From: a virus
Taxonomy: Duplodnaviria > Heunggongvirae > Uroviricota > Caudoviricetes
DNA length: 21,580 bases
Reading direction: 5' to 3' (one strand)
Virus record (IMG/VR): IMGVR_UViG_2724679140_000004
Location: 1 to 21,580 of that record
The translations under genes were made by a program, and so were the position numbers. This document shows positions 15,232-18,255 of the stretch, one piece after another. Below the pieces are notes generated by a model, which made no database searches, was not told the origin of the DNA, and saw nothing but the letters and a program-made list of their open reading frames with translations. Positions within the stretch are counted from its first letter, which is position 1; each line of letters begins with the position of its first letter.

Positions 15232-15262
15232 GTAAATAAAAAAGGGCCACCAGCGGCCCGTA
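15232..15262 (-). terminator. Intrinsic terminator immediately upstream of the lysis cassette
   Basis: Minus-strand RNA would read GGGCC-GCUGGU-GGCCC followed by UUUUUUAUUU, ending about 10 nt before the holin RBS. Confidence 0.6.
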
Positions 15263-15313
15263 AAAAACACCCCGTCAAAAGCACCAGCATCCGCAGATGC
15301 CTTTTGTGCGGTG

Positions 15314-15466
15314 CTATTCAGATTTGCGCAGTAAAGGCAGGAGGACGACCAGCGCCATTGCCACCAGCACACCATCTGCCAGCACCGACATCAGCCGTCC
15401 GATGAAATCCACCACCACTACCAGAAACAGCAGGATGGCAGCCAGTACAAGGCGCGCACTTTTCAC
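15314..15466 (-). CDS. Unlisted small ORF: 50-aa two-helix membrane protein coupled to the TerB-like gene
   Basis: GTG at 15466-15464 overlaps the TGA of the upstream gene (GTGA). My translation: MKSARLVLAAILLFLVVVVDFIGRLMSVLADGVLVAMALVVLLPLLRKSE. Host-like CTG/GTG/GCG codon usage; the antisense frame is Ser/Thr-rich. Below the 60-aa cut-off of the ORF track. Confidence 0.45.
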   Translation of the reverse strand: MKSARLVLAAILLFLVVVVDFIGRLMSVLADGVLVAMALVVLLPLLRKSE

Positions 15467-15960
15467 AGATACTGCTCCAGCGGTAACTGCAGCGCCTGAG
15501 CAATTTTCTTGAGCTGCGCTTCTTCATCCGGACCAATGCCGTCCTGGTCTGCGATATCCAGACACAGGCACAGCACATTAACTGCATCATCAGTACCTGC
15601 AACATCAGCCAGCTGACGAAGGGCTTCGGCATTGGCAGAACGCGGTGACGCTTCATAACGGGCGCGGATATTGACGCTCATCTGGGCAATCTCACCGGAG
15701 AACGGCGCAAAGGCAGGAAGTGCTGCAATGGTTTTCTCCAGTACCACGATTTCTTTCGCGTCACAGGTGTCGTCAGCGTAAGCAATGGAATACGCACCCC
15801 AGACGGTCGCCTCCACTGCATCGCGGTTCTCCATTTTCTTTACTTCAGTAATGGCCTTGCGGGTTTTCTTTTTTGAAAATACCAAACATCGTGACGTTTC
15901 CTTTTGGTGGATGAGCCTTCGCCCGGGAGGCCAGCCCACAGAAAAAGTCACACTGACCAT
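15463..15960 (-). CDS. TerB-like domain protein (putative)
   Basis: The C-terminal half (...LCLCLDIADQDGIGPDEEAQLKKIAQALQLPLEQYL) resembles the TerB fold signature as I recall it. Start is uncertain: ATG at 15960 (165 aa) or 15834 (123 aa). Confidence 0.5.
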   Translation of the reverse strand: MVSVTFSVGWPPGRRLIHQKETSRCLVFSKKKTRKAITEVKKMENRDAVEATVWGAYSIAYADDTCDAKEIVVLEKTIAALPAFAPFSGEIAQMSVNIRARYEASPRSANAEALRQLADVAGTDDAVNVLCLCLDIADQDGIGPDEEAQLKKIAQALQLPLEQYL

Positions 15961-16204
15961 GCCGTAAGCTCGCCCCTGAAAGGCTCTGTGGTTTTTGATG
16001 TGCGCCGGACGTGGCGCAAAGAAATGAAATAAGACTTACCTGAAATTAAGGTTAATCTGAGGATTTAAACCATTTATAATGCTTAGTAATATAAATACGT
16101 CTCTCTGGAGGAGAGAGATGCTTATTCTTCTTCATGGACTTTGTCCCGCGGCTTTAATCCGACAGCCGCGCCTTTTTTCGCCAATATAAACCGGGTTGAA
16201 CTCA

Positions 16205-16230
16205 TACAAAAAGCTCGCCGAAGCGAGCCT
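16205..16230 (-). terminator. Intrinsic terminator downstream of the tRNA-like element
   Basis: Minus-strand RNA would read GGCUCGC-UUCG-GCGAGC followed by UUUUUGUAU. Confidence 0.55.
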
Positions 16231-16257
16231 GTTAAAAGTATATTTACCGTTACAAAT

Positions 16258-16339
16258 GGACCGTCACCATGGACTCGAACCCTGCACCACAAAACAACAA
16301 TACGTGTTATGCACTCTTACCCAATGAGTTAGTGACGGT
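16258..16339 (-). tRNA. tRNA-like element with a non-canonical anticodon arm (possibly a pseudo-tRNA)
   Basis: Minus strand has a perfect 7-bp acceptor stem (CCGTCAC/GTGACGG), U8-A9, a 4-bp D stem with GG in the loop, a T arm reading GGTTCGAGTCC with one G-A mismatch, and discriminator plus CCA. The anticodon region is about 5 nt too long and pairs poorly. Confidence 0.4.
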
Positions 16340-16390
16340 TTTTTGTTCTGTGGGAATCCAGTCTGACGACAGAATTACTGGAACACCTTG

Positions 16391-16423
16391 CAAAAAAAAG
16401 CCAGCCACCAGAGACTGGCTGGC
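16391..16423 (-). terminator. Intrinsic terminator upstream of the tRNA-like element
   Basis: Minus-strand RNA would read GCCAGCCA-(8 nt loop)-UGGCUGGC followed by UUUUUUUU. Confidence 0.6.
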
Positions 16424-17064
16424 AAATTACAAAGCTTAAATGATTCATCATACAATCGTCGTTACAGGGGAAACCTGCGGTGCAGCAAGATACAGAAATG
16501 TAAGCAAACTAACAATAAGCAAGCACAGCATATTCGGAATTAGTTATAATTTTAACGATGCAATGATTATTCAGTATGCAATTCAATCAATTCCCAAAAA
16601 AACCGCCATGAAGAAGGTTGGTCAATGCAAGAGATGAATTTTTTGATTGTTATAAAACCAGGGCGTCGAGCACCTCCCGAAGTATTCCGTGCTGTATGGA
16701 TACTGTGGTTTCCCGCTAAACCGACTCTTTAAACCACCCTCGCACTGAGGAGCGCCTCTGTGATGCTTTTACAACACCAGAATGATGCATCACCGACCCT
16801 GCCAGGAAATACAAAATCTCCACCGTAACTCTCCACAAGCACTCCTGGGGTTGTGCGCTCTTTCCCTGTGCACTGTGTCAGTTCAGACACCCCCTAATAT
16901 CCTTTACGGCTCGTGCCAGGCGTTCTGACTTATTATCGTCTCATACCGAAGGCGTCACACCAAAGGGATTCCACCAAAAGATAAATAAAATGATATTTTT
17001 CAATGAGTTACAGCTATGATGAGCTATACTTTTTAAACGATAATATGCATCCAGAAGGCTGAAA

Positions 17065-17394
17065 ATGATGGAATGGATAGTGATTGACACTGTTATATGC
17101 TCATCAAGTGGAATAACGTTTTCTACAGTATGGAATAAAATAAAATTGATACTCTGGTATCAGTCAGATGTATTCCTGCCACCGGGAAGCACTTTCACAC
17201 CGATTAATTCCGGTATCATCATGAATAATAAACAAATTCCATTAACAATTTACAACGTAACTCCATTTAACAAAAGATTCTGGTACCTCATCAAAAACAA
17301 CAAAGATTGCCCGGGAAAATCAGTAAAAACAAAAAGTAAATGCCCAAACAACCAGTGTATGCTGACAATATGTCCGTATGGATTATATAAATGA
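17065..17394 (+). CDS. Plus-strand accessory ORF of unknown function (109 aa) in an AT-rich island
   Basis: GAAGG 6 nt upstream of the ATG. Hydrophobic N-terminus and a Lys/Cys-rich C-terminus ([30 protein letters not shown]). Opposite in orientation to every phage gene here; followed by a hairpin at 17449-17467. Confidence 0.45.
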
Positions 17395-17439
17395 CAGCAT
17401 ATGAATTGATTCATCCCCCCCCTCAGACTCACCACACAT

Positions 17440-17468
17440 AATAAAAAAGCCCCTCAGGATGAGGGGCT
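17440..17468. terminator. Strong hairpin closing the AT-rich island
   Basis: GCCCCTCA-GGA-TGAGGGGC stem; a U-run follows on the minus strand and a weaker UUGUAU follows on the plus strand. Confidence 0.55.
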
Positions 17469-17697
17469 TGTATACGCATTTACTACCATCATTGTCATAG
17501 TGCCGGGTGCCTCCCGGTGAATTCTGCAATGACCAGACAGAATCCGCTGCTTGCTACTCTCGCTAATGCAACCCAACCTGACGGTCATTATGCCCCGCCG
17601 CTGAGGGGGATTCACCATGCTGGGACTTTTTAACAAATTGCACTAAAATAACACAACGATTAATCGACAAAATCGTGACTGACTTAACATTTTATTT

Positions 17698-17925
17698 CTA
17701 CCCGAAATTATCACTGATGTACTGCATTATCTTCTGAAAACTCTCAGCTTTCTGTTCAGCGCCCGTCGCACAACTCTCTGACGCCATAACAGCTTTTATG
17801 ACTGAGCCTGAACCAATGAAGAAATCCGCTACCAGGTCCACAGAATGACTACCAGCACAAATTACGGATGTTTTTTCACAAGAATACTTACCCGGGTAAA
17901 ATTGATCTGGCTTATTCGTCCACAT
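17698..17925 (-). pseudogene. N-terminal fragment of a Dam-like (D12 class) N6-adenine DNA methyltransferase, truncated after ~80 codons
   Basis: ...YPGKYS...(16 aa)...LVADFFIGSGSVIKAV matches the spacing and motif I (FxGxG) of E. coli Dam as I recall it. The ORF stops at 17698 where the AT-rich, non-coding sequence begins. No convincing RBS. Confidence 0.4.
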
Positions 17926-18147
17926 ATCAGAGTACGGTAATAACACTAGCACACAAAAATACTGGCGCAGCTCTTTATATTCACTAAGTCAGTCACTTCT
18001 GTGATACATACATGGCCTCGAACCAGTGGTGTGTTTTCCCTTTTCCGGTTAACGTGACACACCAATAACTCTTGTCGAAAAAGCCAGCAAGCTGAAAGAC
18101 CGGTATTCACCACCACCAGCGCGTTTAACGTACTGTACCGATTTCAG

Positions 18148-18176
18148 TTATAAAAAACCCGCCAGGCGGCGGGGTG
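18148..18176 (-). terminator. tR'-like intrinsic terminator ~85 nt downstream of Q
   Basis: Minus-strand RNA would read ACCCCGCC-GCCU-GGCGGGU followed by UUUUUUAU. Confidence 0.6.
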
Positions 18177-18222
18177 TAAAAAGTCTTCTAACGTCAGGCA
18201 TAAAACGCCCATTGTCAGAGCA

Positions 18223-18250
18223 AAATTACCACAGATTCCGGAAAAATCAA
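18223..18250 (-). promoter_or_regulatory. Candidate late promoter (pR'-like) immediately downstream of Q
   Basis: Minus strand reads TTGATT, 16 nt spacer with TG at -15/-14, TAATTT. Same layout as lambda pR' (TTGACT/TAAATT as I recall). Confidence 0.4.
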
Positions 18251-18255
18251 CAACC

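Follow-up and report, generated by a model that had tools for sequence, protein, structure and literature searches.

A probable lambda-type Q late-control cassette, with accessory units inserted behind its terminator, in a lambda-like prophage

The DNA considered here, called the window throughout, is a stretch of 21,580 nucleotides (IMG/VR virus record IMGVR_UViG_2724679140_000004, positions 1 to 21,580). It is the DNA of a lambda-like prophage, whose genes lie on the minus strand, and the region that we analysed is the approximately 3 kb from the gene for the antiterminator Q to the first holin gene (15232-18255). We suggest that this region is a lambda-like late-control cassette with accessory units inserted behind it, and would put the probability of this reading at about 0.8. 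Coordinates refer to the window, and features lie on its minus strand unless stated otherwise.

The 43 bases 3' of the Q stop codon align with lambda pR' element for element, and this alignment places a pR'-like late promoter and a predicted sigma-dependent pause element at 18208-18250. The -35 hexamer is TTGATT (18250-18245; TTGACT in lambda) and the -10 hexamer TAATTT (18228-18223; TAAATT in lambda). The spacer between them has 16 nt and includes an extended -10 TG (18231-18230), whereas lambda has 17 nt and no TG. Six bases (TGCTCT; TGACTC in lambda) then separate the -10 from a -10-like GACAAT (18216-18211) and a GGG (18210-18208), where lambda has AACGAT-GGG, so that the pause element would occupy +1 to +6 as it does in lambda. 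The lambda 6S RNA starts at the first A of AACGAT, and by analogy the predicted +1 is G18216. In the whole window the composite pattern TTGA-N17-20-TAWWTT-N7-AYRATGGG has one match, at 18250-18208; 100 shuffles gave no match at all. The promoter spacer, TTTCCGGAATCTGTGG, is the presumed Q-binding site; it is kept, like the promoter around it, among loci with the same Q allele and is unlike the lambda spacer. Judged by consensus matching alone, the putative promoter is weak and no better than chance: its hexamers match in four and three of six positions, to which the extended -10 TG may be added, and our promoter scan does not list it. Its support is comparative. A sequence-only reading of this DNA had proposed a promoter of the same position and layout (TTGATT, 16 nt, TG-n-TAATTT); both are confirmed, with the qualification just given.

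The relatives come from a one-genome-per-species scan, which yielded 16 Q loci of 37-93% identity in Escherichia, Shigella, Kosakonia, Mangrovibacter, Phytobacter, Scandinavium, Buttiauxella, Atlantibacter and Entomohabitans. Most of these loci have a -35/-10 pair and the motif [AG]A[CT][GA]AT-GGG at a constant distance beyond the end of Q (+42 or +69/70 from the stop codon), the form AACGAT-GGG being found at a fixed offset in most relatives. Most of the loci also have a hairpin and U-run after the pause motif, in the same two-hairpin layout, giving predicted RNAs of 54-71 nt. One locus (L010) has the hairpin and no [AG]A[CT][GA]AT-GGG motif, and it was excluded from later tallies. That these sequence elements are present, homologous, and in part conserved and in part variable among relatives is a matter of observation. 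Together with the family assignment of Q described below and the pR' alignment, the shared layout bears out the earlier likening of the site to lambda pR'/tR'.

The candidate tR' is an intrinsic terminator at 18152-18173, with the stem CCCGCC-GCCT-GGCGGG (18173-18158) followed by six T's (18157-18152). A transcript running from G18216 to this point would be a leader RNA of about 65 nt (18152-18216), the predicted counterpart of the lambda 6S RNA; its length agrees with the short RNA of 60-90 nt that had been anticipated from the promoter. In it a 5' hairpin (18216-18190) is joined by an A/U-rich linker, AGAAGACUUUUUAC, to that of tR', the whole having a minimum free energy of -19.3 kcal/mol (z -2.0). 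The stems of tR' vary between cassettes (CCCGCC/GGCGGG, CCCGCT/AGCGGG, CCTCGC/GCGGGG) and their position is kept; this variation was taken from single-sequence folds, as the MAFFT alignment left the stems out of register. The 5' hairpin starts at +1, and in the relatives' leaders its columns pair in 96% of cells, compared to 29-46% when the partner columns are slid. Among the relatives compared, no two-sided covariation is seen in it, only one-sided changes, because its 5' arm is the pause element, which is fixed. Lambda pR' forms an equivalent hairpin from +1 to +25 that includes the pause element sequence. Such a hairpin may serve to stabilise the late transcript at its 5' end; alternatively, it may simply reflect constraint on the DNA at the pause site.

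One speculative suggestion is that the leader acts, as StxS does, as a constitutive Hfq-type small RNA on host mRNAs in lysogens. Its 5' hairpin, an ARN-like AGAAGA, a U-rich stretch ahead of the terminator and the U6 tail would suit such a role, which we consider rather unlikely. The table of orphan Hfq sites (EcOnc) of strain Sakai has no entry at the estimated position of the leader; the table omits sites less than 100 nt from a gene and is hence uninformative on this point. The leader was also compared with HnrS, a 66-nt multicopy prophage small RNA (PMC13502914), and that identity was rejected: HnrS (EcOnc10) maps to Sakai Sp12, where it lies between the endopeptidase gene and those of the terminase and is opposite in strand to the late genes.

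The Q gene (18256-19077) encodes 273 residues and is a Q-lambda family member (PF03589 in Pfam, E 6e-52; the Pfam entry is identified with this family in PMC9388147). With phmmer the protein matches the lambda Q chain 7ubm_Q at E 3e-40 over both halves of lambda Q, residues 1-113 corresponding to 1-113 of lambda Q and residues 182-273 to its positions 116-207. The protein has its full length and retains G39, L202 and T206, positions at which mutants of lambda Q lose antitermination (PMC9388147). C53, H56 and L58 are changed to L, M and I relative to lambda Q. The extra block between the two aligned parts has about 68 residues (114-181; 18535-18738) and carries two additional CxxCxGxG motifs, which makes four in total, as in the DnaJ zinc domain; it is inserted exactly where the zinc-ribbon 'arm' of lambda Q that contacts the Q-binding element begins. 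Relatives of Q with about 250 residues also appear longer than lambda Q. The parts of a Q-lambda cassette are the Q gene, pR', the Q-binding element, the sigma-dependent pause element and the terminator (PMC9388147). All sequence-level defining features that we tested are found at this locus, which is, by that standard, an ordinary lambda-type Q cassette. The Q allele and the DNA through tR' (query 18130-19077) are found at a coverage of at least 80% in 2478 of 5426 complete E. coli genomes (about 46%), among them UTI89 and strains of O157 and O104:H4. The annotated records that we examined label this allele simply as 'antitermination protein' and leave promoter and terminator unmarked.

Comparison with other alleles suggests how the cassette moves. 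The Q alleles of E. coli M8 and UMNK88 are different ones (a DUF1133 protein and a 222-residue Q), each with its own leader and its own hairpin, and these loci become homologous to the window only from the tR' hairpin, or from a point just past it, onward. On these comparisons tR' marks a recombination boundary of the Q cassette. Since the other alleles have different leaders and the homology runs from tR' onward, Q and its loading site would therefore be exchanged together as one cassette. Such joint exchange is expected if each Q recognises its own site, and the change of leader with change of Q allele fits cognate pairing of Q and site. In all, three unrelated Q alleles, each with a leader and hairpin of its own, join the same downstream sequence at or directly after tR' (18152-18173 in the window; 3985-4012 in L001; 2962-2988 in L002).

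What follows tR' was surveyed with a strict rule for terminators: a perfect stem with a minimum of 5 bp, four or more of them G-C pairs, a loop of 3-8, and five or more T's in the next six bases. Between 15232 and 18255 this rule yields five minus-strand sites and no plus-strand site, while 1000 dinucleotide shuffles give a mean of 0.053 and a maximum of 2. The whole window has nine minus-strand sites and a single plus-strand site, and five of the nine fall within 14% of the sequence. Behind tR' come T2 (stem 17469-17447 of 10 bp, UUUUUU in a U-run to 17441), T3 (16423-16400; 8-bp stem and T8, -16.5 kcal/mol, z -3.8), T4 (16230-16211, with TTTTT after the stem) and T5 (15259-15244; 5-bp stem, T6 at 15243-15238). 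The five hairpins have free energies of -10.8 to -17.1 kcal/mol, T5 being the weakest, and the z values of T2-T4 against shuffles are -3.8 to -5.2. The strict scan returns exactly the five terminators that the sequence-only reading had listed, and a consensus scan lists all five as well. The claim that late transcription must pass several co-directional terminators beyond tR' is likewise supported, except that the last of them is double, a point overlooked in that reading. Just ahead of T5, and directly 3' of the DUF3927 stop codon, a sixth element forms a long hairpin (15314-15267) with a U6 of its own (15267-15262); the two make up a double terminator (15238-15314) that folds jointly with -33.4 kcal/mol (z -3.45) and is kept in M8 and UMNK88 with one change of G-C to G-U. 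Additional clean minus-strand terminators are seen further along the late operon, after the endolysin region (14093-14118) and in the tail gene region (6370-6386 and 4524-4541, the latter two-way). Q-modified polymerase would have to pass these three as well.

One of the units inserted behind tR' is a small RNA of the STnc100/PasD family (17437-17656; Rfam RF02076), whose terminator is T2. The covariance model matches over its full length at 17650-17437 with 109.2 bits (gathering score 47; E 2e-23), and T2 is an integral part of that model. The promoter would be TTGTGT (17656-17651), 18 nt and TGt-TAAAAA, with the -10 at 17632-17627; an upstream TTG, the 18-nt spacing and TGtTAAAAA are common to 10 STnc100 copies. 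The predicted start, G17620, is the G of GCATGG and matches the 5' end of PasD2 in enteropathogenic E. coli E2348/69, which had been deduced from RNA-seq coverage and the size of a northern band (PMC8550237). With its own promoter and its own terminator, both predicted, STnc100 would be an independent transcription unit. PasD and STnc100 are described as related Hfq-binding small RNAs of prophages (bioRxiv 10.64898/2026.05.13.724894), and the PasD homologues are seen as discrete Hfq-bound RNAs on northern blots of uninduced cells (PMC8550237). The copy in the window resembles PasD1, PasD2 and STnc100 in scoring well above the RF02076 threshold, in its conserved 5' end GCAUGGUGAAUCC and in its position behind Q; it differs from PasD2 in that its central region is about 77-80% identical, and this over short stretches only. 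In each relative that we examined, STnc100 copies are found in the interval from Q to the lysis genes, without exception in the late orientation. E. coli O2:H6 PG20180057 has four tandem copies of the family behind this Q allele (L005 8279-9389), and UTI89 has two.

Convergent with STnc100, and 43 nt from its end, is iraM (17065-17394, plus strand; NCBIfam NF007393, 145.5 bits with a cut-off of 121), the gene for an anti-adaptor that stabilises RpoS. E. coli M8 has an annotated iraM at the same place. The hairpin that the ends of iraM and STnc100 have in common lacks a T-run on the iraM side, so that iraM transcripts may run antisense into the STnc100 gene. DNA resembling iraM (67-69% identity) is also seen 3' of STnc100 in E. 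coli ECMA0423 and in E. albertii (L008, L009).

The other units are less well preserved or carry no known gene. Between Q and STnc100 there is a relic of a DNA methyltransferase gene, only its C-terminal part (17698-17985); the 84-residue open reading frame matches positions 174-218 of PF01555, below the family cut-off, and the relic is 64-65% identical to the 3' end of an intact gene that follows Q in L005-L007. Further on, a non-coding block (16392-16824) ends in T3, which forms its terminator fold. The block is found in 286 E. coli genomes, unannotated throughout, and T3 is identical in UMNK88. The possibility that T3 terminates PasA or PasC, both of which often lie close to TerB, was rejected, the PasA of E2348/69 having no match in the window. 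Next comes a degenerate tRNA-like sequence (16338-16257), 75.6% identical over 82 nt to a tRNA-Lys gene of L005 and followed by T4, the unit as a whole spanning 16206-16338. It is a relic only, and neither ARAGORN nor Rfam finds an intact tRNA in the window. The last unit before the holin is a pair of genes, one of the TerB family (15463-15889 or 15960; PF05099) and one for DUF3927 (15314-15466; PF13064), annotated alike in relatives. The usual start of TerB at 15889 is out of frame owing to an extra A at 15874-15869 (six A's, versus five in two relatives), and a 2-nt deletion at about 15925, upstream of that start, creates an in-frame ATG at 15960. This change of frame could mean a pseudogene, a sequencing error or an altered N-terminus. 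The 320 non-coding bases before TerB (15890-16210) are nearly identical in the window, M8 and UMNK88 and exceed the adjoining coding DNA in conservation; within them are a CGCGGCT/AGCCGCG hairpin and another, weak and two-way, at 16121-16097.

Of the accessory genes that the sequence-only reading had placed between the terminators, then, TerB and DUF3927 are the sole late-strand protein genes; the other units are relics, a small RNA, non-coding DNA and iraM on the opposite strand. The content between Q and holin differs in every relative examined and may include a methylase, tRNAs, one to four STnc100 copies, AgvB, an esterase or iraM. In Kosakonia (L016), a holin of the same family follows about 200 nt after Q, with two terminators between.

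The genes around this region are ordered as follows. A hok/sok type I toxin-antitoxin locus (21249-21573; Rfam sok, 114.6 bits) lies upstream of the DUF968 gene, rusA and Q, as it does in relatives; the approximately 3 kb stretch, which is poor in open reading frames, comes next, and then two holins, an M15 endolysin, an HNH gene, the terminase and the structural genes. The first lysis gene is the holin at 14827-15219 (Phage_holin_8, PF16931, E 6e-24). Its ATG is at 15219, with GGAG at 15230-15227, and the final T-run ends 18 nt upstream of the ATG, leaving a gap too small for a promoter. The promoter scan lists no late-strand consensus promoter from 18301 to 13000; it is an insensitive scan, which also misses pR' and the STnc100 promoter. 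As no late-strand promoter is listed and there is no space for one before the holin, expression of the holin must come by read-through, and late expression through Q antitermination is, in our view, a sound inference from the sequence.

The mechanism that we envisage, in which start site, pausing, termination efficiency and Q dependence are inferred by analogy with lambda and the Stx phages (PMC9388147, PMC7547250), would be as follows. In the lysogen, host RNA polymerase with sigma-70 would start constitutively near G18216, just after Q, as in lambda and the Shiga toxin (Stx) phages, and would stop at tR', as in lambda, releasing the RNA of about 65 nt. Upon induction, Q would be made, bind the site in the promoter spacer and load onto polymerase paused at GACAAT-GGG. 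Polymerase modified in this way and, as the lambda type has it, assisted by NusA would ignore the hairpins of tR', T2, T3, T4 and the double terminator after DUF3927, and would read through to holin, endolysin and structural genes. T2-T5 would be the 3' ends of separately acquired units, namely the small RNA, the non-coding block, the tRNA relic and TerB-DUF3927, and are probably not built as extra locks. A side effect would be that transcription from promoters within the inserts is kept out of the holin gene in the lysogen, while the same terminators are transparent to Q-modified polymerase. This turns around the earlier idea that the accessory genes are insulated from late transcription in the lysogen. 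That idea fails, as nothing would pass tR' there and no late transcription would exist from which to insulate them; it is more likely that T2-T5 protect the holin from the inserts' own promoters.

Several other explanations can be offered for the same elements. Selection might have placed serial terminators as a layered safety lock against leaky read-through of tR' to the holin, the accessory content being incidental. All five terminators are co-directional with none on the other strand, the last is double and ends 18 nt before the holin ATG, and even the minimal Kosakonia locus retains a second terminator between tR' and holin, just as a lock would predict. The number and identity of the terminators, however, shift with the inserted content in relatives, one of them being integral to a small RNA gene with its own promoter and another following a tRNA relic. 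We regard a selected lock as an improbable account of the series, although it overlaps with the explanation that we prefer and does not exclude it. A more radical alternative is that the hairpin at 18173-18158 merely ends the early-right operon, without a working promoter in front of it, and that the late genes are driven from elsewhere or the prophage is defective. The weakness of the promoter hexamers, the absence of the site from the consensus scan and the decay seen in the region (the methylase relic and the TerB frameshift) could be read in this way. It would leave unaccounted for a -10-like element with GGG that keeps the lambda spacing and, in most of the cassettes examined, a constant distance behind Q, in a prophage where no other late-strand promoter was found and Q is full length, and we consider it very unlikely.

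It could also be proposed that STnc100 acts in cis as an antitermination or processivity RNA, like put of HK022, so that passage downstream would not be due to Q alone. At every locus examined its copies lie between Q and the lysis genes in the late direction, and one locus has four in tandem. Yet each copy has its own promoter and terminator, the PasD homologues are discrete Hfq-bound RNAs with targets in trans, and an element 3' of tR' cannot help with the first terminator. The putL of HK022 was located by its published primer, and the STnc100 model has no match (E up to 1) in HK022 27.6-38.2 kb, putL included; with this negative Rfam scan we rejected the equation of STnc100 with a put-like RNA, and we give such a role in cis the least credence of all. 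What HK022 putL shares with the STnc100 of the window is one 11-mer, CATTAGCGAGA (17566-17576, and about 28229-28239 of HK022, L003); it lies downstream of the put structure, and because it is outside that structure the match is probably due to chance.

A lambda-like late-control cassette with inserts behind it, the reading that we prefer, has points against it too. Where lambda and most relatives have TAAATT and AACGAT, the window has TAATTT and GACAAT, and both promoter strength and pausing are predictions. The Q-binding element cannot be recognised by sequence, and the zinc domain of Q is larger than in lambda Q. T5 on its own is weak, with its 5-bp stem and a z of -1.7. An own promoter was found for STnc100 only, and the insensitive scan recognised none for the 16392-16824 block, the tRNA relic or TerB. 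Lastly, the methylase relic and the TerB frameshift amount to some decay, and the prophage may not be fully functional.

How does the locus compare to known systems? It shares with the Q, pR', 6S RNA and tR' of lambda a Q of PF03589, a promoter directly after Q, a 6-nt spacer to the pause element, the GGG behind this element, a YG step at +16 to +18, a 5' hairpin from +1 and an intrinsic terminator that Q would override. It differs from lambda in its leader (about 65 nt here, 194 nt in lambda), in the two additional zinc motifs of its longer Q, and in the approximately 3 kb with four more terminators that precede the holin (about 0.6 kb in lambda). In the last respect it is closer to the Stx phages (933W, Sp5, Sp15, H-19B), in which accessory units, too, have been inserted behind tR' and ahead of the lysis genes, and Q-modified polymerase reads through them. 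The late order in those phages is Q, pR', StxS, tR', tRNAs, stx, STnc100/AsxR, esterase and lysis genes; STnc100, which lies downstream of stx2 in Stx2 phages, thus occupies the same interval and orientation as here (PMC12370729), and the short pR'-tR' transcript is constitutive in their lysogens (PMC7547250). The DNA just 3' of tR' (18172-18034) is 95% identical to several Stx2 phages. Unlike the Stx phages, the window has no toxin, intact tRNA or esterase in this interval, and StxS has 258 nt, processed to 74 nt, in contrast to the leader of about 65 nt. The inserted units may also be compared with the morons of lambdoid phages, as they are present or absent between conserved neighbours, have their own terminators and, in at least one case, an own promoter; unlike morons, several of them are non-coding or decayed, and for most of them no own promoter was found.

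In kind there is little new in this locus; a layout with inserts behind tR' is already known from Shiga toxin phages. Its practical use lies in the coordinates, by which late promoter, pause element and tR' are placed for a Q allele that nearly half of the complete E. coli genomes carry, in cassettes of a type whose tR' is just 54-71 nt away from the predicted start. With a double terminator only 18 nt ahead of the holin start, the locus is also a simple example of how a lethal gene may be kept silent beside expressed inserts. More generally, it illustrates clearly how small RNAs, tRNAs and host-modulating genes, iraM among them, gather in the gap between Q and holin, most of these units coming with a terminator of their own.

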